DNA of 64,000 nucleotides from Candidatus Latescibacterota bacterium (GTDB lineage Bacteria; Latescibacterota; UBA2968; SICM01). The DNA is taken from assembly GCA_965217865.1 (NCBI GenBank), contig CBDCJO010000002.1, positions 96,001-160,000 on the forward strand, given 5' to 3'. The notes below the pieces were generated by a model that made no database searches, was not told the origin of the DNA, and saw only the letters and a program-made list of their open reading frames with translations. Positions 3,600 through 37,768 of the stretch are shown here, piece by piece; the first letter of the stretch is position 1; every line of letters starts with the position of its first letter. A program made the translations under genes and the position numbers.

Positions 3600-4030
3600 G
3601 ACCTGAAGCCAGTGACAAAAAGGCTGATTCCCGCACCCTCGTGGGCGTCCATGTTCCACAACTTCCTCAAATACAAGGGGTTCTCTCTCTGGCGTGACGG
3701 TGAGCGGTTAGGAAAAGGGTGCAGATGGGGAGCCACATCTTCGACCGCCAACTTCGGCGGTCGTCCGTTAACGCAAGACCCCGTGGGGCAACCCTTTGGG
3801 GTCTTGTCGTTTCTGTCGTATTCACAAACACTTGTGCCACATCCTTCCCTCTCTGCCGATTCTCTGTTTCGAAGCGTTTCCCCCGGTGTCCGAGCACAAC
3901 CGTGGGGTTGCGTCCGCTGAGCAGAGATATCTCCTCCGGATTCTCTGATTCTCTGTTTTTCCCGTCGGCCTTATTTAACAGCCTGGTTCGACGTTTTGGA
4001 AGGTCCTCCGGTACGTATTCACTGGAAGCC
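3600..4030. repeat. Dispersed repeat: arm A + TGGGGAGCC core (3726-3734) + arm C
   Basis: Arm A recurs at about 19277-19414 and 20410-20549; arm C recurs at about 23740-24050 and 37479-37768. Confidence 0.85.
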
Positions 4031-4179
4031 GGACCCGATGGGTCCGGTCACCGGCCCCAGAAACACATACCGGATTTTGAAACGGATTCATTGGCTACAC
4101 GGGATTCAAGAGTTGACCGGATACGCCAATTCTCATATATTCTTTGTCGTGTTTGTCTGGTTTCCCTTGAAGAGAGATT

Positions 4180-4410
4180 GCGGTCTCTCAAGTGCAACCT
4201 GCGCATGCCACCGGTATCATATGTGTGAGCGATGGTTCTTTCCACCCGTTCTGCACGACTTCGGCGCAAGGCCTTGCCGCGATCTCCCTTGATCCGGCGT
4301 CGATTCGCATATACCGCGGCCTGCTCATCTCGTCGGCCGTTCCACTTGCGGCGTCCCCGATCCGGTTCTGAAATGTAACTCCGGATGCCGCCTTGCTTCA
4401 GACTGTACAA
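4180..4410 (-). pseudogene. IS1182/IS5-type DDE transposase, C-terminal fragment
   Basis: SYISEPDRGRRKW...AVYANRRRIKGDRGKALRRSRAERVERTIAHTYDTGGMRRLHLR. Confidence 0.75.
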
Positions 4411-5761
4411 TGCGCTGGTTGGTGGTCAACGCCTTGAAGACATTGAGCTGCGCCGGCAGGATGCCACGTTCCTGAACGCTTTGGGCGCTCAGCGTCTCCC
4501 GGATCCGACCACAGCAGGCGACTTTACACGTCGTTTCCGGCCATCGGATATCGAGACGTTGATGGATTGCATCAACCGGGTGCGCACCCGGATCTGGAAA
4601 AAGCGCGCCAGGGGCGAACTCAAAGAAGCCCTCATCGACATCGACGGCACCCTGGCCACCACTCTCGGAGAACGCAAGCAGGGCATGGCCCTGTCATACA
4701 ACGGTATCTGGGGATACCATCCTCTCGTGGTCTCTCTGGCGAACACCAGGGAGGTGTTGTTTCTTGTGAATCGACCCGGCAATGTGCCCAGCCACGACGG
4801 TGCCGTAAAGTGGATCGATCGCGCCATCGCGCTGGTCGCCCCTTTCGCCAAACGCATCTGCCTGCGCGGAGACACCGGCTTCTCACTCACCCGGCACTTC
4901 GATCGTTGGTCGGAAAAGGTCGACTTCGTCTTCGGCATGGATGCTTACAGAGGATTGGTCAAGATCGCCAAATCCCTGTCACAGAGCGATTGGGAGCCCT
5001 TTGAACGACAACCCAAATACCAGGTCAAAACCTCCCAGAGACAGAAACGCGAGAACGTGAAAGCCCGGATCATCCGGGAGCGCGGCTTCAAAAACATCCG
5101 ACTTGCCAGTGAACGTGTTGCCGGGGTTTCGTATCGTCCTGCTCGATGCAAGAAGACCTGTCGACTCGTGATCCTCGAAAAGAACCTGAGCGTCGAACGC
5201 GGCGAAAACGCCCTGTTCGATGACAAGCGCTATTTCTTCTACATTACCACCCGAAAAGATCTTACGGCCGCGGAAATCGTGAGGCTGGCCAATCGACGGT
5301 GCGATCAGGAAAACGTGATTGAACAACTCAAGAACGGGGTCAACGCCATGCGGATGCCCGTCGACAACCTGATGAGCAACTGGGCTTACATGGTCATGAC
5401 CGCCTTGGCGTGGAACCTCAAAGCCTGGTTCGCGTTGATGATCCGAAAGCGTGAGCGTCGCGATCAACTTCTGAGAATGGAGTTTCGCGCCTTCCTCCAG
5501 AATCTGATCTGGATCCCCTGCCAGATCGTGACCCGGGGAAGACAGATCATCTATCGTGTCTTGGGCTACAACCGGTGGATGACTGACTTCTTCCCGGCCT
5601 GGAACAGAATTAGATGGCTCAAACCGGCCTGACTGCCATGTCAGCACCTGTCGTCGTAACATCACAGGGACAAGTCCGTCCACCCCGGCTAAAACACGTC
5701 CGCAAACTCAGTTAATTAGACAATCGCATGCCGAAACAATCACAAAAACAGCCCAGACATC
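4408..5761 (+). mobile_element. IS1380-family element, 5'-truncated copy
   Basis: Near-identical to about 57204-58557; IDIDGT, RGDTGFS, ENVIEQLKNG motifs. Confidence 0.9.
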
Positions 5762-5879
5762 ATCTCGACCAAGTCACAAGTCTGAAATGCTCCAATGGGA
5801 AAGAGGGCCCGGATTGAATCCTCTTGACCTTTCTCGTGGCTAATGTACTCCCACGAGGCCTCCCCAGAAAAGAAGAGCC

Positions 5880-6680
5880 TTGCATGTTCAGGAGGTACTT
5901 GAGATGCGACGTACTACAGCACAGCTTGTTACATTGGCCAAGTATAACAGTCTAATTGCTGGAAGGACAACTAAGAGACGGTATCTATACGCGGCAGTAG
6001 TCTGGGGAGTAACTGTTGTTGCGCTTGTTCCTATCCTCGTAATTGCTAGCGGGCTAACGCCTTTTGAGTTCAGCCTGAAGGAACGATTGTACCTACACCA
6101 GTTGCTCTTTCTCCTTGTGCTCGTTCTGATGAATATGTTCTACTGGAGTCGGATTGGAGCGGATGCTTTTATAAAACCATATCATTTGATGTCATATCAG
6201 ATTCCACCTCTGAAGAGATTCATCCTGACGCTTGCCACAGGCCTAATTGAACCAAGGGTTGCTCCTTATATAGCCGTTGCTATCTTCCTTTCCCTATCAG
6301 CAATCCCTCTAGGTTTGGCTTCATCTGTTACAAGCTTAGCAGGATGTGTGCTCTATTTCTTGATCCTTGAGTTGATAGCAACTCACATCCAGTTCTTGTC
6401 CCCCCGAGTCATGCCTGAGTATCAGAAGCATTCTGCGCTCTTTGCATTTCTCCCATTCCTGATCACATTCACTTTGTTGCCCTTGAAGAAGCTACACATG
6501 CTCTTCGAGGTGCCGAATCCCATCACCTGGGTAGGCGATGCCACTACCTTAGCGATGGTCGGTCGCCAAAGCGAGGCATTACAGGACCTTGTTCTTCTCG
6601 GGCTATTTGCCGCAGGCTTGTTCTTCTTATCCAAACTCACGGCGCAGCAAGCAAATGATCTTCCTGCGGCACTTGAGTGA
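5880..6680 (+). CDS. Multi-pass membrane protein, probable ABC-2-type permease
   Basis: About 6 hydrophobic helices; lies upstream of an ABC ATPase. Confidence 0.6.
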   Translation: MHVQEVLEMRRTTAQLVTLAKYNSLIAGRTTKRRYLYAAVVWGVTVVALVPILVIASGLTPFEFSLKERLYLHQLLFLLVLVLMNMFYWSRIGADAFIKPYHLMSYQIPPLKRFILTLATGLIEPRVAPYIAVAIFLSLSAIPLGLASSVTSLAGCVLYFLILELIATHIQFLSPRVMPEYQKHSALFAFLPFLITFTLLPLKKLHMLFEVPNPITWVGDATTLAMVGRQSEALQDLVLLGLFAAGLFFLSKLTAQQANDLPAALE

Positions 6681-6780
6681 GAGCGCCGAGGTAAAGTAAT
6701 CTTGGATTAAACCCATTCACAACACCAAGAGTCAAATACACCGGCTTTCCATTTACTTCAAGTGGGATATCAAGTTCGTT

Positions 6781-7350
6781 GTGCGGCACGGAGCAGTCGT
6801 GTTCGGAACATCGCTCCTCATCTCCCTAGCCCTCTTGATTCTCGTTCAGCATAAGCTTCAATTTCACCCTGGGTTGATCGTTGTGTTGATCTATCTGTGG
6901 CTTGAACCATTCAGCGGTGATCTTAATCGGTTCCCCGGTGAGTTGTGGCGCTATCGGACTTTCGGGGTGAGAATCAATGAGGTAGTGTTTGCTAAGAGTG
7001 TGTCTTGGATTAGCTTGTCCGCCATGGCTGTGCTTTCCTACATCCTCTTGGGTGTGCTGTTTGATCGGAGCGGGGGCTCCACTGAGCTTCTTGAGTTTTG
7101 GGCTCTCACAATAACTCCGTTCATTACGTTCTGGGTCGCCTCGATTCACGTTTGGGGCATAGGCTGCTCACGAACGCTCTTCGCTCGATACACCATTCAT
7201 CTGATACTGATAGGATTGAGCGTGTTGCCATATGTGGTTGGCAAAACAATAGGGGGGTCGATCGCTCTTTCCTGGGGCATCGCGATCATGACTATGGTTC
7301 TGTGGCCACTTATATCACTTCGTGTTCCGGCAGAGGTAGACTTGCTCTAG
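6781..7350 (+). CDS. Multi-pass membrane protein, probable ABC permease
   Basis: Hydrophobic helices; operon context. Confidence 0.55.
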   Translation: MRHGAVVFGTSLLISLALLILVQHKLQFHPGLIVVLIYLWLEPFSGDLNRFPGELWRYRTFGVRINEVVFAKSVSWISLSAMAVLSYILLGVLFDRSGGSTELLEFWALTITPFITFWVASIHVWGIGCSRTLFARYTIHLILIGLSVLPYVVGKTIGGSIALSWGIAIMTMVLWPLISLRVPAEVDLL

Positions 7351-7436
7351 GCAGGGCGCTTCTTCTGTCCACTTTAGGGTAAGCACGGACGATCTGAGAC
7401 AGCTCGCCAGGACGCATTTCAGGGGGATTTACTCCG

Positions 7437-8216
7437 ATGAGGCCGATGGTATATGTGAACAATCTGCGAAAGGCATTTGGGAAAAATTTAGCGATAGATG
7501 GCCTCTCCCTATCTGTCTCAGAAGGCAGCATTTATGGCCTTGTGGGTCCTAATGGAGCTGGGAAGTCCACTCTCCTAAACATCATAGCAGGGGTCATGAA
7601 GCAAGACTCCGGCGACGTCAGAATAGGAGACTGCCGCACTCAACTTGGCGACCGCCTGGGAAATTCACTTGGTTTCGTACTTGATAGACCTTTCTACATC
7701 GGAAAACTAACAGCTTCGGAATTCTTAGACTTCTGTGGATCTATGCGCGGCCTTGAGCAAGAGGAACTGGAATCTAGGAAGAAGAGACTACTCTCATTTT
7801 TTGACATCTCAATGACAGATGATTCTTACATCGAGACTTTCTCAAAGGGTATACGTCAAAAGATCTCCATAGCTGCAGCGGTGATCCATAATCCAGACAT
7901 CTTGATTCTGGATGAGCCTTTTGATGGACTGGATGTGACTTCGACAGAATCCGTATGCAGGATTCTTAGACAGTCGAAGTTGACTGGAACTACAATCCTA
8001 GTCACTTCGCACATGCTAGAGTTAGTCCAGGGACATTGTGACTATTACGGGATATTGGATCGCGGAAAGCTCGTGTTCGAGTGCGAAGCCTCAAAGCTGG
8101 AAAGTCAGCTCGGAGATCGCGTGGCAGGCTCTCTCAGAGAGATTCTGCTTTCTGTGATCTCCACAGATACAGTCCGAGAGTCTCTTCCGTGGCTACAGAA
8201 TGGGGACTCTGAGTGA
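7437..8216 (+). CDS. ABC transporter ATP-binding protein
   Basis: GPNGAGKST Walker A, FSKGIRQK signature, ILDEP Walker B, TSH switch. Confidence 0.95.
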   Translation: MRPMVYVNNLRKAFGKNLAIDGLSLSVSEGSIYGLVGPNGAGKSTLLNIIAGVMKQDSGDVRIGDCRTQLGDRLGNSLGFVLDRPFYIGKLTASEFLDFCGSMRGLEQEELESRKKRLLSFFDISMTDDSYIETFSKGIRQKISIAAAVIHNPDILILDEPFDGLDVTSTESVCRILRQSKLTGTTILVTSHMLELVQGHCDYYGILDRGKLVFECEASKLESQLGDRVAGSLREILLSVISTDTVRESLPWLQNGDSE

Positions 8217-8462
8217 TGCTCTGGAGAAAGAGAGCTCATACAAGTACCAACGTGAATTAGGAGCTGAGAAATCGTGGCTCAGATTACGAGGCTCAAACCT
8301 GATACAGCTGGTCGTTGATGGCGCCCTGTTCGAAGATGGTGACCTGAAAAGGGCTGCCTGATCCATTCGGATACGCTCGCCCTCATCCACAACATTTGAC
8401 AATATCTCTGTCCGGACCTCAAATAATAACTTTTCCCGACAACGAGGGCCTTTAGATTAATA

Positions 8463-8621
8463 TCAACGCATTGCCACTTCGCTCCTCCCTTCAGTCGTCG
8501 CTCGGCCTTCGGCACACTTGCCTTTGTAACGGCAGTTGCTCGAAGGCGGGACTGGAGGCAACTGCCGCGCCAACTCCGGCTGCGCCGGGAAGGCAAGAGT
8601 CGGCAATGCCAAACGTTAAGT
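8463..8621 (+). repeat. attC-like long imperfect palindrome ending in core site GTTAAGT
   Basis: GCATTGCC/GGCAATGC, CTTGCCTT/AAGGCAAG and GGCAGTTGC/GCAACTGCC nested arms; GTTRRRY at 8615-8621 just before an ORF. Confidence 0.6.
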
Positions 8622-8674
8622 GCCATGCCGGGCCTGGGGGGTAGGCATTAACCTGTATCGCGGGAGCAAACAAC

Positions 8675-9400
8675 GTGATCGAAGACGAATCCAGGGCTAA
8701 TCTTGAAGTTGCACCCGTCCAGCAGGGCTACGCTCGCTGGTCTGAGACATACGATGTGCAGGACAATCCGCTGATCATCCTAGAAGAGCCCCTCGTGCGA
8801 TCCCTTCAAGGAGAGGTCCAGGGACTCAAGGTTGCCGACATTGGCTGCGGCACCGGGCGACATACGGTCCAACTGTCAGAAGCGGGAGCTCGGGTAACCG
8901 CAATCGACTTCGCACCAGAGATGATGGCACAAGCCATCGAGAAGACGAAAGACCAGGAAGTGCGATTCGTTACCCACGACCTGACGGAACGCTTCCCTTT
9001 CGATAGCGATGCCTTCGATCGCGTTCTCTGCTGTCTTGTCTTAGAACACATCCCTGATCTCGAACCCAGTGATTCGCGAGATGGCGAGGATCTGTCGGCC
9101 GGGTGGCTTCGTGCTCATTTCCGAGCTTCATCCTGCGATGTTCCTCCGCCGCGTTCAGGCCCGCTTTACGGATACAAAGACGGGTCTGAAGGTTAACGTC
9201 GAGAGCTATCGCCACCTGATTGCGGACTATGTCAATGCTGCCCTGAAGGCCAATCTCCAGATAGACCTCATCGAGGAGCATCTCGCTGACGAATGCCTGC
9301 TGGAGAAGTCTCCGAGAGCGAAGGAGTATTGGAATGAGTCCCGAGACGATTTCGATCTGGGGTGGCCGATGCTTCTACTCATGAAGCTTGGTAAACCTCT
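8675..9400 (+). pseudogene. Class I SAM-dependent methyltransferase cassette, frameshifted near 9065
   Basis: ADIGCGTGR motif I, FDRVLCCLVLEHI; continues in the second frame as IREMARICRPGG. Confidence 0.8.
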
Positions 9401-9404
9401 GTCC

Positions 9405-19167: not shown

Positions 19168-19414
19168 CGGTCGCGGCCTGTTGGATGACGGCGAGGTTCG
19201 AAGGCCTTGAGATCCGCATTAGCTTTTTTCAGGGACTGCACAAACTGCATGAATTTCCGGACTTCGCCGTCACGCAGACCTGAAGCCAGTGACAAAAAAT
19301 CGACTGATTCCCGCACCCTCCAGGCGTCCATGTTCCACAACTTCCTCAAACACAAGAGGTTTCTCTCTCTGGCGTGAGGGTGAGCGGTCAGGAAAAGGGT
19401 GCAGTTGGGGAGCC
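19168..19414. repeat. Dispersed repeat arm A (extended) ending at core TGGGGAGCC
   Basis: Matches 3600-3734 and 20301-20549. Confidence 0.85.
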
Positions 19415-19479
19415 GGTCTCAATGGGGAAGAAACGACTGATATGACTGGAAAAACGGGAATCGATCTTGATGTCTTGAC

Positions 19480-19586
19480 ATGGTTTCCGCCTAGACGGTG
19501 TGGGTGTAATTACGATATATTCTTTCAATACAGCATGTTACGTCTGACAAACAGAGAATGGTTCCGGGGAAAGGATCATATGGGGA
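19480..19586. repeat. Dispersed repeat arm B ending at core TGGGGA
   Basis: Matches 37369-37478 and 23687-23739. Confidence 0.85.
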
Positions 19587-20190
19587 CCCGAGCACTGCTG
19601 CCCATAGCCCGCAGCCAGAAGCTGCGAGGAACCGACAGGGGGTTTCGTGGGATCGGGCGCTTGTCTGGACTCGCCTTCGCCGAGTCGGTCACATTCCTGA
19701 CGCGCACCCGGAACGACCGACCAGTCACCCGCATCGTTTGGAATGGTCCTAAGCTCCGCAACCGCATCCATATCGTCGAAACCGAACGCGCGATTCGGGA
19801 GTGCGTTGTCGTCGAGACTTTGCCCGGGTCGGAATACCCCGCCCACTTCTTCGAAGTTGAGGTTGGCGGCGTCGGGCGACACGCCGCAGGGCTGATATTG
19901 AACCGGGAAGCAGTCCGAACTTACATCGGTGAAGTTTGTCCCGTTCCGATGCCGTCGACTTTCCCATTTGCTTCGGAAGTCGAAACTCTCTTCGGAGAGA
20001 ATGAGTCGCCGCTGGCGCTGAAGGTCATCATGGACGGCGAACTCGCGCCCATGACGAGACGATATGGCGAGACGATTCGATTTTCGGAGGACCGGAAGGA
20101 TCGCTTCACCGGACTCGAAGCGATCCACATCCCCTCCGCGGACGGAAACCGAAGCGCCGCCCTCGGCTGGATCGCCCATTCCTTCATCCT
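19587..20190 (+). pseudogene. Internal fragment of a GHKL/HSP90-like ATPase
   Basis: RGFRGIGRLSGLAF glycine-rich lid motif; VCPVP; no native start or end. Confidence 0.7.
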
Positions 20191-20300
20191 TGTCGCGATA
20201 GGCCCCCAGTAGCCTTGTGCAAGGGGAGCCCGGCGGCTTTTCCCACGATGTCCCAGACCGGATTCTGCCGGACGCGCTCTTTGATCGTGACTCTTGGCTC

Positions 20301-20549
20301 GGTCGCGGCCCGTTGGATGACGGCGAGGTTCGAGACACCGAGCTTCGCCCCGCCCTTTTTTAGGGACTCCAAAAATTCCAGAAATCGCTCCGACTTCGCT
20401 GTCTCGCCGACTTGAAGCCAGTGACAAAAAGTCGACTGGCTGATTCCCGCACTCTCCAGGCGTCATTGTTCCACAACTTCCCCAAATACAAGTGGTTCTC
20501 TCTCTGGCGTGACGGTGAGCGGTTAAGAAAAAGGTGCAGTTGGGGAACC
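20301..20549. repeat. Dispersed repeat arm A ending at core variant TGGGGAACC
   Basis: Matches 19168-19414. Confidence 0.8.
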
Positions 20550-20592
20550 GCATGTCCGCCTTTTAGTTTGCAAGCAATTTCCGCAGGCTGAA

Positions 20593-20612
20593 AACCACAA
20601 TATGTTGTGGTT
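20593..20612. promoter_or_regulatory. NrdR-box-like palindrome
   Basis: AACCACAA-TATG-TTGTGGTT, fits the CACwATATwGTG-type consensus. Confidence 0.45.
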
Positions 20613-20624
20613 ATTGGCGGATGG

Positions 20625-23686: not shown

Positions 23687-24050
23687 GTTATGACTGACGA
23701 ACAGAGAATGGTTCCGGGGAGAGGATCATATGGGGAGCCAGATTCCCATCCGCCAACTTCGGCGGTCGTCCGTTAACGCAAGACCCCGTGGGGCAACCCT
23801 CCGGGGTCTTGTCGTTTCTGCCGTATTTACAAACACTTGGGCCACCTCCCCCTCTCTCTGCCGGTTCTCTGTTTCGAAGCGTTCCCCCGGTATTCGAGTA
23901 CAACCGTGGGGACTGCATCCGCTGAGCAGAGATATCTCCTCTGGATTCTCTGATTCTCTGTTTTTCCCGTCGGCCTTGTTTAACAGCCCGGTTGCATCCG
24001 GGCGGACGGTTTCGACGTTTTGGAAGGTCCTCCGGTACGTATCTGCTGGA
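23687..24050. repeat. Dispersed repeat: partial arm B + core (23731-23739) + arm C
   Basis: Matches 37425-37768 and 3735-4030. Confidence 0.85.
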
Positions 24051-24504
24051 AGTCGGGGGTCGGCCCGGTGGGTCCGGTCACAGCTTACGGCAACTCACCG
24101 GACAGCGAAGCGGCCATGCGCCCGGAATCGTAGCCAGCGCAAGCCCCCCAGTCCACCTGCCCAGGGCGATGCCTTTCAAGCAGCGGTGGTGGCGATTTTC
24201 GCAAGGCCTGTTAAAAGGCGCGTCGGTTCCTCCCGTCAACAGGAAATACGGGCGACCCTGGCAAGGGGGGGGGGGGTAAAAGTGTTCAGTGATCGACTTT
24301 GTGAAACCGCAAGATCGGTTCGAGTCCGTTCGGATGAGAGGATGGGAGAATGTACACAGGCGTCTGACCGAGATGGGAAATTCTGCGGACACGATCCTGC
24401 GTTCCAACTTTCTCAAGGAGGAGATAAAACGCCTGCGTCGGTGGTCGACGATTCGTCCCGACGACTGTTCTGCGATTGATGAAGATGGGCAAAGGGAGGA
24501 TCTC

Positions 24505-24692
24505 GTTTAACAGCCCGGTTGCATCCGGGCGGCCGGTTTCGACGTTTGGGAACGTCTTCCGGTATCCGCTGGAAGCGGCCCGTGCGCCCAGAGTCCGTTG
24601 TGGATGCCGCCGCGGGATTCAAGAGTTGACCGGATACGCCAATTGTCATATATTTTCCGCAGTGTCTGTCTGGTTTCCCTTGAAGAGAGATT
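24505..24692. repeat. Distal arm C remnant plus satellite block
   Basis: TTTAACAGCCCGGTTGCATCC... and CGGGATTCAAGAGTTGACCGGATACGCC...GAAGAGAGATTG, also at about 4100-4180. Confidence 0.75.
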
Positions 24693-24910
24693 GGTCGAAG
24701 GCGGCTGCTGAAGAAGGTCGGGCCGGTATCGTTGGAGGTCGCTGCCGTCACGCGCAACGAGATTCTGTACTCCCTGAACAAGCCCGAGGACTTCATCCTC
24801 GGGATCGTGGAGTTTCTGGACGACGGCCGGCATCAGGTCCACTACGTTCGTGAACCCTTTCAGCGCGAGCCGGATTTTGGAGTGACAAGCGTCAACTACG
24901 ATTTATTACG
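24693..24910 (+). pseudogene. DUF3883 C-terminal fragment of an SNF2-type defence helicase
   Basis: VTRNEILYSLNKPEDFILGIVEF...PFQREPDFGVTSVNY. Confidence 0.7.
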
Positions 24911-25028
24911 CAAGACGACGAACGGCTGTTGTACGTCGAGGTGCGTCGACTGGCGCAGGTAATGACCCCGAACAAAAAGTAGTGGAGGGGGGGTCATCCA
25001 CGCGACGTGATCTATTGCTCGGAGATCT

Positions 25029-26291
25029 ATGAGACCCGGCGACGCTGCCGGTCTTGTTGGTGGGGAGGTTATGGACGAGACACGCGGCGATCTGCCGCGA
25101 CCCGAGACGCCTAAGGACGGAGAAGACTGGCTCACTCTCCGAGAACGGGAAACGGCCGGGGAGCTTCGGCTCCTAGATCCCCACCTCGCGGGCCTATACG
25201 AACGCGGGCTCGCGCTGGCACGTCAGATCGATCAGCCTGGAAACGCCTATCTAGTCGCTCACGCTGGGCGTGAGCTTTCACGCGGGGTCCTGCAACTCCT
25301 GTTGAGGGATGAGGGTCTGGAGGTTGCTGCCGAAGACCTTGAGAGCGTGTCTTCGAACGAACGCAACCGACCGCGCATCGCAGAGGCTCTGGGGCTGGAG
25401 ACTGATGACCCGCGTGTTGATGAGTGGTTGCACCTCGTAAGACAATTCTCAAGTGCTGCCCACTGGCGATTCGGTGGCCCGCAGGCGATCGCTGTGCGCG
25501 AAGCTATTGAGAGATTCACCAGCTTGTTGTACGGCCGCGTGGCGCCGTACTACGTAACCGAGGCCGAGTTGGACGAGCTACTCAAGGTCGAGACCCCCAA
25601 CAGTCAACACGCGAAGCGACTCCGTGACCTTCAGCTCCGTCATGGACAGCGGAACTACTTCTTCCAACAGCTAAGAAATCCGGGGTGGGTGAAGTACCTC
25701 GCGGCCGAGGGCTTCTTCACGAGCCCGCCAGGCCGGCAGCAGAACGCTGATGGCTCGTGGAGCCCCAAGCCATGGCCTGAAGGCAATTACCTCGTGTTAG
25801 CTGCAGCTGATGAACCGGCGGCAGTGCTGGAAACTTTGAATTCAATTCCTTTGACGAACGATAACCCCTTCGTGTGGGATGTCGTGGCTAAGGCCAGCCG
25901 CCATCTTCCTCCCGGTCTGGCCGCATGCATTGTTCCAACTCTAACGAACGCCCTCAAGACTGTACCGGCAACATCGGCGAGGATCTTCAGTGAGAGCGTG
26001 GTGGATCTTCTGGTCTGGCTCGCCGAGACGGAACAGATAGAGGCGGCATTCGACCTCGCAACTTATCTCCTCCGAGTCGCGTGTCCGAGTGAGACGGAGG
26101 AAATGGAAGGACTATCCTTCCGTGTGCGGACCCACTGGGTTTTCCCGCGTTTCGGCTGGCACGACTACGCTGAGCTCCTAGGACGCCTCGTGGATGCGCT
26201 CGAAGCTCTAGATGCTACAAGAACTCTGGCGTTCCTGCTATCGAAGGTCCGGGGCGTGCAAAGGCTTACTGACCAGCTAGCAGCCTGTTGA
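25029..26291 (+). CDS. Hypothetical helical protein, truncated by an IS end
   Basis: Long ORF with YFFQQLRNPGW...EGFF, WPEGNYL; stop supplied by the IS at 26281. Confidence 0.55.
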   Translation: MRPGDAAGLVGGEVMDETRGDLPRPETPKDGEDWLTLRERETAGELRLLDPHLAGLYERGLALARQIDQPGNAYLVAHAGRELSRGVLQLLLRDEGLEVAAEDLESVSSNERNRPRIAEALGLETDDPRVDEWLHLVRQFSSAAHWRFGGPQAIAVREAIERFTSLLYGRVAPYYVTEAELDELLKVETPNSQHAKRLRDLQLRHGQRNYFFQQLRNPGWVKYLAAEGFFTSPPGRQQNADGSWSPKPWPEGNYLVLAAADEPAAVLETLNSIPLTNDNPFVWDVVAKASRHLPPGLAACIVPTLTNALKTVPATSARIFSESVVDLLVWLAETEQIEAAFDLATYLLRVACPSETEEMEGLSFRVRTHWVFPRFGWHDYAELLGRLVDALEALDATRTLAFLLSKVRGVQRLTDQLAAC

Positions 26292-26582
26292 AAAAGTGCA
26301 TTTATGCCAAGATGACTGTTGTCTTTCCTTGTGGTTTGGTCCTATGATATATCAGGTTCAAACTGAGAAGGGAGGACGAGCAAATGGCAATGGGAAAACG
26401 AGGCCGACAGAGACAGGAAAACCTGTTCATCGCATCGAACACTTTGGTGAAATCTCCGGGTCATCCGTTCTACGAGAAGCTGAATCAGGTATTGGGGGCG
26501 AACGGGTTCGACGAGTTCGTCGAAGGGCTTTGCCAGCGGTATTACGCTCCTCATATGGGTCGCAAGGGCATTCCGCCCGGGT
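26281..26582 (+). mobile_element. IS1182/IS5-type left end plus transposase N-terminus
   Basis: CAGCCTGTTGAAAAAG end; MAMGKR...RQENLFI...PGHPFYEKLN...GRKGIPPG. Confidence 0.75.
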
Positions 26583-26654
26583 CCACTTCCTCTCTCCCCT
26601 ACAGTCAAAACTGTGCCCTACAAGAGACCACAGCATCCCATTTTAGGAGAGGTC

Positions 26655-26808
26655 GATGGCTAATCGCGGTCTGGTACAACCCCCATCGGCGACACTCAGC
26701 ACTCGGATATCTCTCTCAAATGAACTTCGAGAAGACCTCCAGCGCTGTCGCCCTTGCAGCCGACTGAATCGCAACTGATAAACCGTCCGCTAAACCGGGG
26801 TAACTCCA
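26655..26808 (+). mobile_element. IS3-family right-end fragment
   Basis: WYNPHRRHSALGYLS; IRR CCGTCCGCTAAACCGGGGTAACTCCA. Confidence 0.75.
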
Positions 26809-26870
26809 TGAGAGAGGCGAACGCCAATGGCGTTGAAACTGCGGCGACAGCCTGAGGGATTACGAAGTAA

Positions 26871-28484
<1,614 letters not shown>

Positions 28485-28559
28485 GAAAACAAGCAGTATC
28501 CACCTTAGGATCAACAACCGTATGTGGTGTAGCAAAATGATTGCTGAGGGTCACTACCT

Positions 28560-29576
28560 GTGAACACTGCAACGCAGAAATATCTTGCCGCCCTGAAGGC
28601 CGACTACAAGTCGGTCACCGGCCAAACTTGGAGTCATTTCTTTTGTCCGATTCTCCATCAAGACGAGGACACAGAATTGTGTCGCGCCCACGTGATTAAT
28701 AAATCTTTCCGGAATTCCGACCGTGCGTGGACCATCCAGCGGGCGGATGTCGATTCTTTTTACGGCACCTTGATGGAAGAAGAATTCTCGGCCCTGCAGG
28801 AGAAAGACCATCAACAACATCATGGTGAGTTGGGCGTAGTGGTTGACCAGAATCTTCATCGAAAACTCAACCCGGTGATCAAACGGGATGGTGAAGTCGT
28901 AGGTCACTACATACCCCAAGGCCCAGTCCCGAAAGAGCACTCAGAGATTTGGCTGGTTAGCCCGGACAAACTTAGCCGCTTGGCACTGAAGATTTCTCCA
29001 GACCAAATCCAAGAGGCCAGCAACTGGGAGGTAGGCATTAATAAGATGTTTCCTCTGCAGGCACTCGCGTCACTACTCAAAGCCGCACACCTAACGCTAT
29101 TTCACCTCCTTGGATACCGATATGCCTTATCAGGTAGTGGTTTCTTTCTCGGCATGGACGTGTTGGGTCGTTTCTTTCTTGATTCTCGTCATATGGAACG
29201 GAAGCGTGCCCTTGAGCGTGCATATTCCCACTTCGGGAAATTCGCAAACTTGGTTCGTCCAATCCTCTCAAGGCCGTTGACTTTCCAAGGCACGTTGACG
29301 GATGACCTTCTCTATCTTTGCATGAGCGGCGATGAGCCGTGGGCCTGTATAGTTTTTGTCCGCACCGGAAACCACATGCACGGAGTTGTTGTACCTACCT
29401 TGGACAACAGCAGAAATTCCGACCGATTCGTTCATTTTTGCAGGACGCCACATCAGACGCTGAAGGTGAGACTTGCTCGATGGATGGGAGGTGTCTGGGA
29501 GATTTCCCCCAATTGTAAAATTCTTGAATGGCCCGAGGCGCAGCTTGATGCCGCCATCAGTTTGGGAGCCAAGTAG
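28560..29576 (+). CDS. Hypothetical protein with degenerate HNH-like N-terminus
   Basis: FFCPIL...ELCRAHVINKSF...QRADVDSFYG. Confidence 0.55.
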   Translation: MNTATQKYLAALKADYKSVTGQTWSHFFCPILHQDEDTELCRAHVINKSFRNSDRAWTIQRADVDSFYGTLMEEEFSALQEKDHQQHHGELGVVVDQNLHRKLNPVIKRDGEVVGHYIPQGPVPKEHSEIWLVSPDKLSRLALKISPDQIQEASNWEVGINKMFPLQALASLLKAAHLTLFHLLGYRYALSGSGFFLGMDVLGRFFLDSRHMERKRALERAYSHFGKFANLVRPILSRPLTFQGTLTDDLLYLCMSGDEPWACIVFVRTGNHMHGVVVPTLDNSRNSDRFVHFCRTPHQTLKVRLARWMGGVWEISPNCKILEWPEAQLDAAISLGAK

Positions 29577-29577
29577 C

Positions 29578-30000
29578 ATGAGCATTAATACGGATTTCCT
29601 CAGACGTTGCCTAGACACGCTGGAACGCGCCTTGAGTGAACTCAAGCGTAGCGACCCGGATAGCATTGCCTATGACATCTACCGAGCGGCCTGCGTCAAA
29701 GAGTTTGAAATCGTCCTGGAGCAGAGCGGTAAGTTGCTGAGGAAGCGACTCGGCGCCTATTTCGCCAGCAACCGTCAGGCGGATCGTCTGGCCTTCAAGG
29801 ATCTTTTCCGGCACACCGCCAAACATGGCCTGATCGACCCGGACACATGCGAGCGCTGGCTGAAGTACCGCGACAATCGCAACGACACCGCACACGACTA
29901 TGGCGAAGGCTTCGCTGAAACCACGCTCAAGCTGTTGCCCGACTTTATCGCCGATGCCGAGGCGCTTGCCGGGGTGATCGAAGAGGCGGACGATGACTGA
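29578..30000 (+). CDS. HEPN RNase (HI0074 / HepT-like)
   Basis: ACVKEFEIVLEQSGKLL helix and intact R-X4-H-X-Y motif RNDTAHDY; ATG 1 nt after the upstream stop. Confidence 0.85.
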   Translation: MSINTDFLRRCLDTLERALSELKRSDPDSIAYDIYRAACVKEFEIVLEQSGKLLRKRLGAYFASNRQADRLAFKDLFRHTAKHGLIDPDTCERWLKYRDNRNDTAHDYGEGFAETTLKLLPDFIADAEALAGVIEEADDD

Positions 30001-31642
30001 AGGGCTGCATCTTTCGCTGAGGCACCGCGAGAAGATCAAGGCGTTGTTGCGCAAGCATCTGCCTGGCGTCGAAGTGTGGGCTTATGGCAGCCGCGTCAAT
30101 GGCCGAAGCCATGACGGCAGCGATCTCGACTTGGTGCTGCGCGACCCAGAACTTGCCGAGATCGACGCATCGCGGCTGGCCGAGTTCACGAAAGCGCTTC
30201 GGGAATCCACCGTTCCCTTTCTGATAGAAGCGCGCGACTGGGCGCGCCTGCCGGAGAGTTTCCGCCGGGAGATCGAGCGCGAACATGTGGTAATGGTGGG
30301 GGCTGAACAGGACAGCGGGCCAGAAGAGATTGAAAAGAAGGACGCAGTCGGTGATTGGTCCAATATGCCATTCAGTGATGCGGTGCTGGTCAATCCGCCT
30401 GTGCCCCTCGAACGTGGCAAGACCTATCCGTTTGTTGAGATGGTTGCCGTAAATGCGGAATCTCGGTCTGCATATTCATCGGATAAACGCGACTTTCGCG
30501 GTGGAGGGTCCAGATTCGAAAACGGCGACACACTCATGGCGCGTATTACGCCTTGCCTTGAGAACGGGAAGGTAGCCCGCTACCGCACATGTAGCAGTCC
30601 CGGAAGCGCCGCACACGGCTCGACGGAATTCATCGTTATCCGCGGACGTCCGGGCGTCACAGATCCAGCGTTCTCCTACTATCTGACGCAGTGGGAGGAA
30701 GTGCGCAACTACGCAATTGGTCAGATGACTGGTACATCTGGGCGTCAAAGAGTCCCAACAGAGTCTCTGGACCACCTCACGGTCTCGATACCGTCCCTCC
30801 CCGAGCAATGCGCCATCGCGCACATCCTGGGCACGCTGGACGACAAGATCGAGTTGAACCGGCGCATGAACGAGACGCTGGAGGCGATGGCCCGGGCGCT
30901 GTTCAAGTCCTGGTTCGTCGATTTCGACCCCGTTCGGGCGAAGATGAAAGGCCATGATACGGGGCTGCCGCAAGAGATCGCCGACCTTTTTGCCGATCGG
31001 ATGGTGGAGTCCGAGTTAGGTGAGATTCCGGAGGGGTGGAGGGTTGCCGATATCGAGAGCCTCTGCGTATCAATCACAAGCGGGGGGACGCCCGCTCGAA
31101 AGGATCCAATCTTTTGGAAGCGCGGTGCGATTCCTTGGTACAAAACAGGCGAACTCCTTGATGGCCCACTCATTGACTCCGAGGAATATATCACTGAGAC
31201 AGCAATCAGCAACTCGTCAACCAAGCTGTGGCCTGCTGGGACAATTTTGTTTGCTCTGTACGCATCGCCAACAGTGGGGAGGCTGGGAGTGCTTGCAAAG
31301 CCAGGAACAGCAAACCAAGCAGTGGCTGGCCTTATCGTAAAGTCGGCGTATGGTGTGCCTTTTCTCAGACGCATGCTTATTGAGGCAAGAGGTTTCTTAA
31401 GGGCTATTGCGGTTGGAGCAGCACAGCAGAACATCAACCAGAGGATCCTCAAAACGCATCGGCTCATTGTCCCCAAAATTGCCGTCGCTGGGGCATATTC
31501 TCGATTGATGGCAACGTGCGACGAACAGCAAGTCGTAATAGCGGAAGAATCCCGCACCCTAGCCGGCCTGCGAGATGCACTGCTGCCGAAGTTAGTTTCG
31601 GGTGAGTTGCGAATGGACGAAGAAAATGCCAAGGACATATAA
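29993..31642 (+). CDS. hsdS: MNT nucleotidyltransferase fused to type I RM specificity subunit
   Basis: N-terminal about 100 aa with YGSRVNGRSHDGSDLDL (GS-X10-DXD), acidic linker, TRD1, LDDKIELNRRMNETLE spacer, TRD2 (SGGTP), LRDALLPKLVSGEL. Confidence 0.9.
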   Translation: MTEGLHLSLRHREKIKALLRKHLPGVEVWAYGSRVNGRSHDGSDLDLVLRDPELAEIDASRLAEFTKALRESTVPFLIEARDWARLPESFRREIEREHVVMVGAEQDSGPEEIEKKDAVGDWSNMPFSDAVLVNPPVPLERGKTYPFVEMVAVNAESRSAYSSDKRDFRGGGSRFENGDTLMARITPCLENGKVARYRTCSSPGSAAHGSTEFIVIRGRPGVTDPAFSYYLTQWEEVRNYAIGQMTGTSGRQRVPTESLDHLTVSIPSLPEQCAIAHILGTLDDKIELNRRMNETLEAMARALFKSWFVDFDPVRAKMKGHDTGLPQEIADLFADRMVESELGEIPEGWRVADIESLCVSITSGGTPARKDPIFWKRGAIPWYKTGELLDGPLIDSEEYITETAISNSSTKLWPAGTILFALYASPTVGRLGVLAKPGTANQAVAGLIVKSAYGVPFLRRMLIEARGFLRAIAVGAAQQNINQRILKTHRLIVPKIAVAGAYSRLMATCDEQQVVIAEESRTLAGLRDALLPKLVSGELRMDEENAKDI

Positions 31643-32870
31643 ACCGCAAGGCCGCCGCGAGGTTAAGCCGCACTGTGCTCTCTGCAATACTCCACTTAAC
31701 GAGGCTAATGGAAGTAAAGAACACGTCATTCCAAACGCCCTTGGCGGACGCAAAGCGATCCGAAAATTTATATGTAAACAGTGCAACAATACTACCGGAG
31801 CAACTTGGGATAATGAGCTTGCCGCCCAGCTACAACCCCTATGCACTATGTTGAATATCCGGAGATTTCGAGGAAGAAATCAGCCAGTTACAATCGAAAC
31901 TGTCAAGAATGAGAAATTTTTGATGCGTCCTGATGGATCACTGACGATACCAAAAACAGTTTTATCGGAACAAAATCTCGGTGATGATCTAACTCAATTA
32001 AAAATTCGAGTCAGATCAATTCAAGAACTTAAAAAAATGATGCCCGGCTTAAAGAGAAAATACCCGAAACTTGACATCAACAAAGTCATAGGGCAAGCGG
32101 CCTCAGGATTGTCAGAAAAAGAGTATTCTCAAGATCCCTGGTCTGTGTCACTTCAAATCGGAGGAAATCTGGCCGGTCGGTCAATCGTCAAATCGTGTCT
32201 TGCGCTTGCGTATGAGGCTGGTCTCCACGTTAAAGACTGCGAACATGCAAAAAGCTATCTTGTGTCGAACGGAGAACCTTGTTTCGGATACTACAATGAA
32301 ACGGATGTCGTTACTAACCGTCCCGCAAGAGTATTCTTCCATTGCATTTTCGTCTGCGGTGATCCGTCGTCCAGGCAGATATTAGGTTATGCGGAGTATT
32401 TTGGTTATCAAAGAATAGTAGCTTGCCTATCAAGTAACTACGATGGTGATCGATTTTCCTGCTGCTACGCAATTGATCCTGTCACGGGCCGGAAACTAAA
32501 TATTGATGTTCACTTGAATTTTACGCCGGAAGATATCAGCGCAATATATGCCTATGAGAAGGTGGGCAATGACAAGACGCGGACGGCCTTATCTTCTTTG
32601 CTGAGAACCTGCAGGGAACGCTCGACGAAGGCTTCGATCGCTCATGCCGTCGAAGACGCGATGGAGTTCGCCTCATCGAATTGTGGCGTTCAGCCGGGGG
32701 AGATGCTTTCTGACGAACAAGTAGAGAACCTAATTGGCTTGGTGCAGAGTCGACTTGAACCTTTTATGCGTCATCTTTATTTCAGCCGTACATTCAGCCC
32801 CGAGGACTTGCAGAACATCGCGATCAAATCGGGATATTTGAGCCGAAGTAATGAGATCAAAGGCGGCTGA
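31626..32870 (+). CDS. HNH endonuclease-domain protein
   Basis: CALC...SKEHVIPNALGG...ICKQCNN; overlaps the hsdS stop; lower GC than its neighbours. Confidence 0.8.
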   Translation: MPRTYKPQGRREVKPHCALCNTPLNEANGSKEHVIPNALGGRKAIRKFICKQCNNTTGATWDNELAAQLQPLCTMLNIRRFRGRNQPVTIETVKNEKFLMRPDGSLTIPKTVLSEQNLGDDLTQLKIRVRSIQELKKMMPGLKRKYPKLDINKVIGQAASGLSEKEYSQDPWSVSLQIGGNLAGRSIVKSCLALAYEAGLHVKDCEHAKSYLVSNGEPCFGYYNETDVVTNRPARVFFHCIFVCGDPSSRQILGYAEYFGYQRIVACLSSNYDGDRFSCCYAIDPVTGRKLNIDVHLNFTPEDISAIYAYEKVGNDKTRTALSSLLRTCRERSTKASIAHAVEDAMEFASSNCGVQPGEMLSDEQVENLIGLVQSRLEPFMRHLYFSRTFSPEDLQNIAIKSGYLSRSNEIKGG

Positions 32871-32908
32871 TACACACGGCACATTCGATCTCTTATCGAG
32901 GGCAGTGA

Positions 32909-35900
32909 ATGAACGGCTTGTGTGAATCCACCGTTGAAGACGCCGCCCTTGCTTGGCTGGAGAGAGTCGGCTGGCAGGTCGCGCATGGTCCCGACATCGC
33001 CCCGGATACGCCGGGCGCTGAGCGCTCCGACTATGGGCAAGTAATTCTGGTGCAACGTGTGCGTGATGCACTCGCACGGCTCAACCCCGACCTTCCCGCC
33101 GACGCGCTGGACGACGCCTTCCGTAGGCTAACTCGCCCGGAAGGTTCGACGCTGGAGGCCTGCAACCGCGCCTTTCACAGGATGCTGGTAGAAGGCGTGA
33201 CGGTGGAGTACCGGACCGACGACGGAGCGATACGCGGCGCACAGGCCCGCGTGATCGATTTCGACGATCCTGCCAACAACGACTGGCTTGCGGTCAACCA
33301 GTTCACCGTGGTCGAGAACAAGCACGAGCGCCGCCCGGACGTGGTGCTGTTCGTCAACGGCCTGCCGCTAGGCGTAATCGAGCTCAAGAACCCGGCGGAT
33401 GAGGACGCGACGACCTGGTCCGCTTGGCGGCAGCTCCAGACCTACAAGGCGGAAATTCCCTCGCTGTTCGCCTTCAACGCGGCGCTCGTCGTGTCGGACG
33501 GGCTGGAAGCGCGGATCGGCACGCTTACCGCTGGGCGGGAATGGTTCAAGCCCTGGCGCACGATATCGGGCGAGGCGCTGGCCGATCCGCAGATGCCGCA
33601 ATTGCAGGTGATGCTCGAAGGCGTCTGCGCTCCGGAACGCTTTCCATCGCTGGTTCGCGACTTCATCGTCTTCGAGGATGACGGCGGCCGGACGTTGGTC
33701 AAGAAGATGGCGGGGTATCATCAATTCCACGCCGTTGGCACGGCCGTTGCCGAAACGTTGCGGGCAACCGAGTTGCAACGGGCCACCGGCTTAGGCAAGG
33801 AACCAGGAAGCAACAAGTCGGGCCGTAGGCCGGGCGGCGATCGGGGTGACCGGCGCATCGGCGTGGTCTGGCATACCCAGGGTTCGGGAAAGAGCCTGAC
33901 CATGGCCTTCTATGCCGGGCGAATCATTCGCGAACCGGCGATGGAAAACCCCACTATCGTCGTGTTGACCGACCGAAACGATCTTGACGATCAGCTCTTC
34001 GGTATTTTCGCCCGTTGCCAGGATCTGCTACGGCAACCTCCGGTTCAGGCCGAGAACCGGGCCGACCTGCGCGCCAGGCTTGCGGTCGCATCAGGCGGCG
34101 TGGTGTTTACCACCATCCAGAAGTTCTTCCCCGAAGAGAAGGGAGACCGGCATCCCATCTTATCCGACCGGCGCAACATCGTGGTCATCGCCGACGAGGC
34201 GCACCGCAGTCAGTATGACTTCATTGACGGCTTCGCCCGCCACATGCGCGATGCGCTTCCCAACGCTTCGTTCATCGGTTTCACCGGCACGCCGATAGAG
34301 CTGGAGGATGCCAACACGCGCGCGGTGTTCGGCGATTACATCAGCATCTATGACATCCAGCGCGCGGTCGAGGATGGCGCGACCGTGCCGATCTACTACG
34401 AGAGTCGGCTTGCTCGACTGGTACTGGACGAAAGCGAGAAGCCGAAGATCGATCCCGACTTCGAGGAGGCAACCGAAGGCGAGGAGATCGAACGCAAGGA
34501 GAAACTCAAGACGAAATGGGCACAGCTTGAAGCGATCGTCGGCTCCAGGCACCGCCTTGCGCTGGTCGCCCGGGACATCGTTTCGCATTTCGAGCGGCGC
34601 ATCGAGGCCATGGACGGAAAGGCGATGGTCGTCTGCATGAGCCGGCGCATCTGCATCGACCTCTACCGCGAGTTGGCTCGTTTTCGCCTGAATTGGCATC
34701 ACGAGGACGACGACAAGGGACGAATCAAGGTCGTGATGACCGGTGCCGCCTCCGACCCGCCCGACTGGCAGCCCCATATCCGCAACAAGCCACGCCGCGA
34801 GGCGTTGGCAAACCGGTTCCGCGACGCCGGTGATCCGCTTCAGATCGTGCTCGTACGCGACATGTGGCTGACCGGCTTCGATGCGCCGAGCCTGCATACC
34901 ATGTATGTCGACAAGCCGATGCGTGGCCACGGGCTGATGCAGGCGATCGCGCGGGTGAACCGCGTCTTCCGGGACAAGCCGGGCGGCTTGGTCGTGGATT
35001 ACCTCGGGCTGGCGCATGAGCTCAAACGAGCGCTTGCGACCTACACCGAGAGCGGCGGCACGGGGAAGACCGCACTCGATCAGGCGGAAGCGGTGGCGGT
35101 GATGTCGGAGAAATACGAGATTTGTCGTGGATTGTTCCACGGCTTCGACTATTATCGGTGGATCGACGGGACACCGGCGAGACGTGTCAGCCTGCTGCCG
35201 GCGGCGCAGGAACACATTCTGTCGCAGGAGAACGGCAAGGATCGCTGCCTGCAGGCCGTGCGTGAACTCTCCCAAGCTTTCGCACTTGCTGTACCGCACG
35301 AGGAGGCGCTTCGCATCCGCGACGATGTGGCGTTCTTTCAGGCCGTCCGGTCCGTGCTGGCGAAGAGAGCTGAGGGGGAGATACGTCCTGAGGAAGAACT
35401 AGACTATGCCGTTCGCCAGATCGTCTCAAGGGCGGTTGCACCGGAAGGGGTTATCGACATCTTCGCCGATGCTGGCCTGGAGAAGCCCGATATTTCGATC
35501 CTGTCTGAGGAGTTCCTGGCCGAGGTGCGGGGCATGAAACAGCGCAACCTTGCGGTCGAGTTGTTGCAGAAGCTGTTGAAGGGAGAATTAGCCGTTCGTG
35601 GGCGAAAGAACGTCGTTCAGGCGCGATCCTTCGCCGAGATGCTGGAGCAGACCATCCACCGTTACCAGAACCGCGCCGTTGAGGCCGCGCAAGTCATCGA
35701 GGAATTAATCCAACTCGCCCGCGATATGCGCGAAGCGAACGCGCGCGGCGAGAAGCTCGGGCTGTCGGACGATGAGCTCGCCTTCTACGACGCGCTTGAG
35801 ACCAACGACAGCGCCGTGCAGGTACTCGGAGACGAGACCCTGCGCGAGATTGCTCGCGAATTGGTCGAGACTGTGCGGAACAACGTCACGATCGACTGGA

Positions 35901-36046
35901 CAGTGCGCGAGAACGTTCGTGCCAACCTCCGCCGGTTGGTCAAGCGCATTCTGCGCAAGTACGGATACCCGCCCGACAAACAGGAAAAGGCGACGCAGAC
36001 GGTGCTTGAACAAGCGGCGGTGCTCTCTCTCGGCTGGGCGACTTGA
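32909..36046 (+). CDS. hsdR: Type I RM restriction subunit
   Basis: [56 protein letters not shown]. Confidence 0.95.
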
Positions 36047-36279
36047 GCTCGGGCACTGGACCCAGTCGACGCGGATTGGAACGTCCGGACGTTTATTGGA
36101 CTCGACCAAATCGCCGACGCGACTCCCGCCATTGGAAAAGGCTGACCGCATGGGATGGAGCAATGGGTTGAATATCTCCCGTCATTCACCGATCTGACTG
36201 TATTCGAAATTGTATATGTGTGAAGTTGTTCAATTTTCAAGTCATTTTATATCAATACTAGCCATTCGATATACGGAGC

Positions 36280-36800
36280 TATGACTTTGTTAGCGCGAGA
36301 ACCCACGACGGAAGAGTGCTGCGGTTGCTGACGCTGCTGGACGAGTATACACGGGAATGCCTGGCGATCCGAGTGGAACGGAGGCTGGGTAGTCCGGAAG
36401 TGATCGAAACGTTGTCGGACGTAATGCTGTGGCGAGGGATCTCGGAACATTTTCGGTCCAACAACGGCCCGGGAGTTGCGGCAGTGGCTGGGGAAGCTCG
36501 GGACGGGAACGTTATACATCGAACCAGGCAGTCCGTGGGAGAACGGATACTGCGAGAGTTTCAATGAGAAGCTGAGAGACCAATGCCTGAACGGAGAGAT
36601 CTTCTACCCGTTGTAGGAGACCCAGATTGTGATTGAGCAATGGCGCGAGGAACACAACACCCGGAGGCCACACTCGGCGTTGGATTACAGGCCCCCGGCG
36701 CCGTGGGGCCTGTAATCCTGTTCTAAACCTAGTTTCACAACTCCAAGTGGTAATGTAATATGCCTCACATCTACTGGTGCAAAAACTTCGGTCTGGTCAG
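36280..36800 (+). mobile_element. IS3-family orfB remnant with right end
   Basis: LDEYTRECLAI, PGSPWENGYCESFN, RPHSAL; frameshifts; ends ...GGTCTGGTCA. Confidence 0.8.
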
Positions 36801-36809
36801 GTCGAGGGA

Positions 36810-36975
36810 AGTGAATGAAGCTTGCTGGCATTTGCGTGATGGGTGCCCTGAGCTCATCGCAACATAGACGGACGATGTACTTCCTGTTGGGCATGCCGAT
36901 CCTCCTCCCACAGCGAACGGATCGGGGAGATAACAAACATTCGGCACGCTCGTTTTAAATGTCAATAGGTACTAG
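36810..36975 (-). mobile_element. IS630-like left end plus transposase start
   Basis: MPNRKYIVRL. Confidence 0.5.
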
Positions 36976-37003
36976 CGGAGATCTAAAACCCGAGACAACC
37001 ACG

Positions 37004-37032
37004 AATCGCACCCCCCCACGGGTGCGATTTTT
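37004..37032 (+). terminator. Intrinsic terminator-like hairpin
   Basis: AATCGCACCC-loop-GGGTGCGATT followed by a T run. Confidence 0.5.
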
Positions 37033-37368
37033 GTGTTCAGTCGAAGGCAGTTACGACCGGTGAAGGTCCCGGGCCAAAATCCTGCCTCGAGGTCCAGACT
37101 GCAAATTCCCCCCAGTTGGAGAAATTCGAATCCCAAAAACGGCTCCTAAGGCCCGATCGCCCGAAGGCGCATCCAACCCCACCCTCCCGGAGTCGGAGAT
37201 GATTACACCGTGCCCATTCCTGTCGGTGTGTGCGCCTTCCAGAGCGAAGGCCGAGGGGGTCCCGGCGCCGTTGACCAGGCGGACGGCTTCGGCCAGGCTG
37301 TTCCACTTTCTCATGTGTTCCATTTTCTCGGCCTTCGCCCTCCATTCCAGGCTGTACCGGTCCTTCAT

Positions 37369-37768
37369 ATGGTTTTCGCCTCGACGGTGCGGGCGTAATT
37401 ACGATATATCCTTTCAATACGGCATGTTACGTCTGACGAACAGAGAATGGTTCCGGGGAAAGGATCATATGGGGAGCCATATTCCCATCCGCCAACTTCG
37501 GCGGTCGTCCGTTAACGCCAGACCCCGTGGGGCAACCCCTTCGGGGTCTTGTCGTTTCTGCCGTATTCACAAACGCTTGTGCCATCTTCCCCCCTCTCTG
37601 CAAATTCTCTGTTTCGAAGCGCTCCACCCGGGATTGCAAGCGCAACCGTGGGGGCTGCATCCGTTGAGCAGAGATATCTCCTCCGGATTCTCTGATTCTC
37701 TGTTTTTTCAGTCGGCCTTGTTTAACAGCCCGGTTGCATCCGGACGGCCGGTTTCGACGTTTCGGAAC
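37369..37768. repeat. Dispersed repeat: full arm B + core (37470-37478) + arm C
   Basis: Most complete copy; about 270 bp upstream of the DUF2924/recombinase operon. Confidence 0.85.

Follow-up and report, generated by a model that had tools for sequence, protein, structure and literature searches.

How do the same few repeat sequences come to be paired with different partners around one short core? The question is raised by a 64,000-nucleotide stretch of a Candidatus Latescibacterota genome (the window, i.e., C2:96001-160000 of the source genome, labelled G000, whose two contigs are C1 and C2). Six junctions in this window bring together a left-end arm (C), two right-end arms (A and B, collectively P), a fourth repeated arm (G) and various other partners, near an operon made of a DUF2924 gene, a large serine recombinase (LSR) gene and a third conserved gene, orf3. 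The repeats are the joints linking mobile cassettes, rich in defence genes, into a chain whose starting point is a tRNA gene. As for how the chain arose, we consider it likely that the junctions are joints crossed at a GA dinucleotide between tandem units targeting tRNA-Asn, and that an integrase deprived of its coiled coil has lost one-way control, a few copies of it mobilising many cassettes in trans.

All six junctions described in a sequence-only reading of the window are present, with their arm pairs, where that reading had placed them (Table 1). The 9-bp core that it ascribed to them is exact at four, but is off by one base, directly after GA, at 19581 and 20541; four exact matches are found in the window against 0.72 expected, and at least four occurred in 0 of 100 shuffles. 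The crossover common to the six junctions is the GA dinucleotide, and at junctions lacking C the sequences diverge immediately to the right of it. Two sides that had been called unique turn out to be repeated: that of 19406 is arm G, present at nine junctions genome-wide, and the right side of 20541 matches a segment at four other places in the genome, intact copies of this target reading AA in the GA register. The minus-strand motif attributed to both A and B is complete at 3726, 23731, and 37470 but partial at 19406, 19581, and 20541. At 19585, GA cuts a gene for an ATPase, which we take to be of the GHKL type from its DNGPGL motif, no family search having named it; an intact homologue in the related genome G055 has about 130 extra N-terminal residues. 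The fullest copy (37768) lies 267 bp from the DUF2924 gene (38035), close to the distance of about 270 bp first given. An independent contig crosses 20545 with 0 differences, a second extends 28 bases to the left of 19585, short of the 31 bases required, and a third crosses an A/G joint with 16 differences. The first reading thus had the junctions right, but overlooked that tRNA-Asn is the target, that the system extends through the whole genome and that the coiled coil bears a deletion.

The geometry of the system is given by a complete element of 11,032 bp (G000:C2:811314-822346), which reads C, DUF2924, LSR, orf3, cargo, B, so that attL and attR flank one enzyme-carrying element. It interrupts a response regulator-GGDEF gene, with residues 1-32 encoded on the left flank and the rest on the right (Pfam match from profile position 34), while the orthologue in the related genome G001 is intact and syntenic and carries GA at the insertion spot; there is no target duplication beyond GA. 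It follows that attP is P/GA/C, where P is A or B, C being the left end and A and B the right ends; attL is tRNA-Asn/C, and units run from C through cargo to P. A, B and the P arm of relatives align as one half-site family, with a GGTT motif shifted, by eye, by 5-6 bp between the P and tRNA half-sites. The sole tRNA-Asn of G000 (C1:619978-620053) is itself joined to C, and the joints have nothing in common with the tRNA beyond GA plus GCC(A). Together with the conservation of C upstream of DUF2924-LSR loci in other phyla, which had been put forward as a check, the tRNA-Asn/C attL and the element splitting a host gene at GA bear out the proposed att-like nature of the junctions, which we regard as highly probable. 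C2:574649 is tentatively assigned as the native attR on the basis of its GCCA start, a hairpin and tRNA-end repeats; an empty tRNA-Asn site matching the distal flank of G000 was not found in the loci of four relatives.

Beyond the tRNA, GA pseudo-sites or secondary sites in five genes or segments have been used. Right end B is joined at GA into a cas4-cas1-like gene in three copies (C2:252266, 377105, and 3312908), which have only GA in common with the intact copy (C2:607801), and comparison with intact orf3 copies likewise places the left boundary at GA. Both halves of a split target were found for one event only, a junction search of G000 having detected no 5' half of the split cas1 and ATPase genes joined to C. 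Of about eight distinct non-C partners in G000, only one starts with GCCA, and target choice in this genome therefore looks relaxed.

The window is a small part of a much larger array. The G000 assembly (6.43 Mb in two contigs, 96% complete by marker count) holds 45 matches to arm C, 39 to B and 26 to A, from whose ends 56 sites were extrapolated; removal of one truncated A arm without a core leaves 55 junctions, namely 30 B/C, 6 A/C, 8 A/G, 1 B/G, 7 B/other, 1 A/other and 2 other/C, so that 36 are attP-like. GA is present at 55 of 55, a figure that is partly built in, as junction sites were chosen by the best 9-mer fit near arm ends. Twelve consecutive same-strand junctions span C2:7607-219621, and the remainder, found in either orientation, extend to 822 kb and recur near 1.4, 2.4-2.5, and 3.2-3.8 Mb; the join between C1 and C2 is ambiguous, since their 6.3-kb overlap recurs at C2:3.29 Mb. 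Units range from 0.2 to tens of kb. Left and right ends have been mixed at GA and the operon has been lost from most units: the operon is complete at 2 of the 38 C junctions and survives as remnants within 4 kb at 10, and no sequence of it lies within that distance at 26, a third full LSR copy being located at C2:3485713. Among the 630 pairs of attP-like junctions, the left side is at least 95% shared in 28 and the right side at least 97% in 5, but both sides in none.

The recombinase itself combines a complete set of domains with an unusual loss. Its catalytic, recombinase and zinc-ribbon domains (PF00239, PF07508, and PF13408) all score above cut-off and S25 is invariant, but the coiled coil expected within the zinc-ribbon domain of large serine integrases is missing, the protein being 59 residues short after the zinc ribbon. 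This in-frame deletion is found in 10 of the 10 G000 copies spanning the spot and in none of 60 measurable loci out of 79 related ones. Of 120 database clusters, 111 are full length, four could not be measured and five carry the deletion (four by measurement, one from visual inspection of the join); the frames of these five are open, with 86-98% identity. In a model of a full-length relative, whose fold matches are serine integrases with low TM-scores (0.2), helices 380-426 and 433-466 make up a hairpin, and its distal portion corresponds to the residues that are missing here (about 392-450); a stump of the two helices would be left in the deletion enzyme. The model of the window enzyme itself had a pLDDT of 57 and was set aside as poor. 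No full-length, coil-bearing member of the tRNA-Asn DUF2924-LSR family is found in the G000 assembly. Two LSR copies are, however, followed (at G000:C2:819482-819814 and 3487272-3487604) by an in-frame fusion of the orf3 start with the C-terminal 110 residues of a coil-bearing paralogue, a product that could either be a relic or make up in trans for some of the missing helix. DUF2924 and orf3 are candidates for directionality factors. In LI integrase, the coiled coil blocks recombination between attL and attR, and its removal makes the enzyme promiscuous and efficient in intramolecular excision in vivo (PMC5499577).

Related loci (labelled L followed by a number) and metagenomes provide a broader view. 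The DUF2924-LSR element family targets tRNA-Asn across phyla: among the best 80 of 296 related LSR loci, 64 have at least 1.5 kb of upstream sequence, and in 34 of them, from several phyla, this tRNA precedes DUF2924 at a distance of no more than 2.5 kb. The family right-end motif was found at 120 metagenome loci, of which 115 had enough flank; 24 of these continue into C and are attP-like, and 72 of the remaining 91 have GA followed by the CCA-restoring GCCA, the pattern that an attR at the end of a tRNA should show. Only one of eight C-type loci with 1.2 kb of flank has operon genes. It follows that tandem joints, like units without a recombinase, are characteristic of the family. C-arm matches number 2, 1, 2, 1, and 1 in five genomes whose enzymes are intact, and the related genome G036 has about five C arms. 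A class-wide search for the C arm gave matches in 12 of 132 genomes, with five candidates scored per genome and thus no copy numbers. The exact B-arm motif had no match in metagenome and viral contigs, nor had the family P-arm motif in viral contigs. G000 also contains an internal control, a second DUF2924-LSR family (about 47% identical, with its coil intact) at the 3' end of the transfer-messenger RNA (tmRNA) gene (C2:1831053-1884620; L007, L006), which forms a tandem of two units 50.7 kb apart. In relatives, C-like arms follow tRNA-Met, tRNA-Val, and tRNA-Lys (L010, L012, L016, L021, L136); sister families, whose left end is built in the same way, therefore use the 3' ends of other tRNAs. 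Partial 3' repeats of tRNA-Asn that other islands have left behind are entered by the element as well (L028, L035, L056, L068).

In the mechanism that we favour, a circle closed at P/C would enter at the tRNA junction or at another junction, each new joint thereby pairing a newer right end with an older left end. Chromosomal attP-like joints would in turn recombine with nearby pseudo-sites, deleting or moving parts of the array, which would explain why P/other joints outnumber other/C joints 17 to 2. The three deletion-bearing enzymes would act in trans, and IS (insertion sequence) activity and homologous recombination would later have inverted and scattered the chain. Remobilisation in trans within the cell is, in our judgement, quite probable; that the deletion enzyme caused the expansion is a tentative proposal, falling slightly short of an even chance. 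Several observations weigh against this mechanism. The link between the deletion and a large array comes from one genome, whose marker contamination is 9.3%, and the evidence consists of assembled contigs, enzyme activity and circles being presumed. Tandem P/C joints and recombinase-less units occur in relatives too, and neither trait needs the deletion; G036, with no more than a fragment of an LSR, has C at three secondary-site junctions. Arm linkage gave mixed results in Mantel tests (r=0.25 and p=0.028 for B versus C, r=0.48 and p=0.0005 for the C halves, r=0.11 and p=0.17 for C 1-60 versus the rest). The ratio of nonsynonymous to synonymous substitution rates among the three full LSR copies is 0.28-0.45, with few changes, and the paralogue remnant stands behind two LSR copies. 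Finally, LI integrase without its coil is a poor integrator (PMC5499577) and phiC31 integrase without it is inactive (PMC10754689).

A bolder version, possible but rather doubtful, makes the enzyme an active, direction-free shuffler: loss of the coil would have turned a tRNA-Asn island into an integron-like bank of dozens of multi-kb defence cassettes over several hundred kb, in which any two joints could excise, move or duplicate the intervening DNA without a directionality factor. Conversely, the coil-less enzyme may be dead or nearly so, as phiC31 integrase without its coil is, the same att joints having been built by full-length enzymes of passing elements and multiplied by homologous recombination between arms and by IS. 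The mosaic arms, the 30-49% of array DNA that is repeated elsewhere, the roughly one hundred IS1380-type copies, the weak purifying selection and the C-terminal paralogue remnant would all fit such a history. We nevertheless regard it as unlikely: the assembly lacks a full-length, coil-bearing family member, the deletion is kept in open frames across the five clusters, side switches fall at GA, and a deletion-bearing element has been inserted precisely into a host gene, neither half of which shows decay at the junction.

Ordinary tandem accretion, in which each unit arrived once from another cell at the tRNA-Asn junction and nothing was reshuffled in this lineage, has to be taken into account because mixed arm pairs also follow from it; the 12 consecutive same-strand junctions and the tandem joints of relatives agree with it as well. 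However, near-identical unit ends have different partners in G000 (in one junction pair the right sides are 99.8% identical over 1875 bp while the left sides are A and B, respectively, and another end recurs with 99.9% identity over 1200 bp), P arms adjoin pseudo-sites within genes of the elements themselves, and junctions occur in both orientations in four distant regions, which makes accretion by itself very improbable. That the arms are IS ends, decayed gene pieces or an assembly artefact, as IS abutting some of them (3594, 4181) and the marker contamination might suggest, can be dismissed as hardly credible, given breakpoints that are not scattered but read GA throughout, the lack of a longer target duplication, the contig crossing 20545, C and P arms conserved beside the LSR operon in other phyla, and C arms that differ by a median of 8.4%, with only 2 of 435 pairs identical. 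The complete element, inserted in a gene whose G001 orthologue is uninterrupted, refutes this reading; moreover, the 25 longest inverted repeats include no inverted arm pair, and the ends enclose the LSR operon.

The cargo of the array is rich in defence genes. PADLOC (threshold 1e-30) recognised 13 of 68 open reading frames in 140 kb of array outside the window, versus 1 of 94 in a 140-kb control. In the window, the unit at 23735-37473 carries a type I restriction-modification (RM) operon and no recombinase. The complete 11-kb element carries a reverse transcriptase gene with an adjoining HATPase_c_4 gene (L003:6302-8322), a pair that is possibly a reverse transcriptase-based defence module. 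No phage genes were noted in the units examined.

Other features of the window lie beside the att joints (Table 1). No Rfam match was found within it. IS1380-type elements, with about 100 near-identical copies in the genome, occupy 4181-5761 and 56980-58557. A separate repeat family, composed of a Mutator-type IS end and relatives and unrelated to the att arms, occurs at 3300-3598, 40572-40644, and 42316-42519. A truncated type I-E-like cas3 (533 aa) runs into an array of clustered regularly interspaced short palindromic repeats (CRISPR; 42649-45027), which has a 61-bp period and 13 repeat-spacer units, no other cas genes being named nearby.

Table 1. Features of the window (window coordinates). 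GA crossovers begin at 3730, 19410, 19585, 20545, 23735, and 37474.
Position	Strand	Feature	Family match
3596..3729	+	Arm A: right end (P half-site) of upstream unit, outer part removed by Mutator-family IS (2442-3594)	
3730..3731	+	GA crossover, attP-like A/C junction	
3732..4180	+	Arm C (left end, P' half-site and hairpins), then element-start segments D and E	
19168..19409	+	A0+A right end of 15.7-kb unit (cargo: helicase, DNA methylase)	
19410..19584	+	GA crossover, arm G and arm B: 175-bp composite right end, 9 genome copies	
19585..20212	+	GA crossover and 5'-truncated ATPase gene (secondary target)	
20300..20544	+	Second A0+A right end	
20545..20620	+	GA crossover into pseudo-site of element-start region	
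23687..23734	+	Short form of arm B; homology among copies of this right-end family extends up to 901 bp leftwards	
23735..24081	+	GA crossover (attP-like B/C), arm C, D	
26871..36046	+	Cargo of recombinase-less 13.7-kb unit: type I RM operon, nucleotidyltransferase/HEPN-like pair, HNH gene	
37200..37473	+	B0+B right end	
37474..37830	+	GA crossover (attP-like B/C), arm C, D	
38035..38571	+	DUF2924 gene	PF11149, E 1.5e-45
38568..39983	+	LSR, 471 aa, catalytic Ser25 intact; 59-residue in-frame coiled-coil deletion between 39716 and 39717	
39980..40450	+	Conserved third gene orf3, 156 aa, weak helix-turn-helix lead; GA pseudo-site at 40103 used elsewhere in genome	No Pfam

The target (tRNA-Asn), ends and crossover are now defined for a widespread DUF2924-LSR family. 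A literature search covering few subscription papers returned no description of the array, target, ends or crossover of this family, nor of a natural coil-less integrase. The model in which the coiled coil imposes directionality rests on conflicting laboratory mutants, the LI integrase mutant being active and promiscuous and that of phiC31 dead. Here a deletion that arose naturally can be compared with close coil-intact relatives, with exact att sites and an in-genome control at hand, so that the directionality question becomes directly testable. If the enzyme is active, one deletion would turn a one-way integrase into a cassette shuffler, a serine-enzyme route to integron-like defence banks.

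Several known systems resemble parts of this one. Sedentary chromosomal integrons reportedly act as defence banks, with a long array of mobilisable defence cassettes and one recombinase, a tyrosine integrase handling small attC cassettes; here, in contrast, the adjoining enzyme is a serine recombinase and not the tyrosine IntI, and units reach tens of kb. In the parts of the papers available for the comparisons that follow, Wolbachia phage WO also has a DUF2924 gene adjoining a large serine recombinase, but downstream of it and in a prophage, with no att array described (PMC11376236); in the literature searched, DUF2924 was mentioned for Wolbachia only. Tycheposons share tRNA entry, degenerate units that make an island grow, tandem junctions and defence cargo (10.1101/2020.12.28.424599). 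However, 910 of 937 have tyrosine recombinases, with partial-tRNA repeats of about 40 nt (10.1101/2020.12.28.424599), whereas only GA is exchanged here and the joints contain no tRNA fragment. Multi-targeting LSRs are similar in that one enzyme cluster uses several target genes with a dinucleotide core (PMC10083194), but the present enzyme has no DUF4368 match and has kept a preferred tRNA site; the word tRNA is absent from the main text of that paper, whose supplements may list family members.

Closer still are phage serine integrases, with which the LSR shares its catalytic, recombinase and zinc-ribbon domains, a 2-bp crossover and the attP/attB/attL/attR geometry (PMC5499577; PMC10754689); unlike in the LI integrase coil mutant, the deletion here is natural, fixed in a lineage, and leaves a two-helix stump. 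The staphylococcal cassette chromosome (SCC, including SCCmec) and its Ccr recombinases offer a parallel for the array as a whole, with one entry site, tandem att-bounded cassettes, recombinase-less cassettes moved in trans and anti-phage cargo such as RM and CRISPR (PMC11470126). SCC nevertheless targets the 3' end of rlmH, instead of that of tRNA-Asn with a DUF2924-LSR-orf3 operon; 15 putative att sites are reported in Staphylococcus epidermidis RP62a (PMC11470126), compared to 55 junctions here; and G000 differs further by its natural coiled-coil deletion and by cassettes known from assembled contigs, whose excision is presumed. Taken together, the array appears to work like tandem SCC cassettes, but is not SCC.

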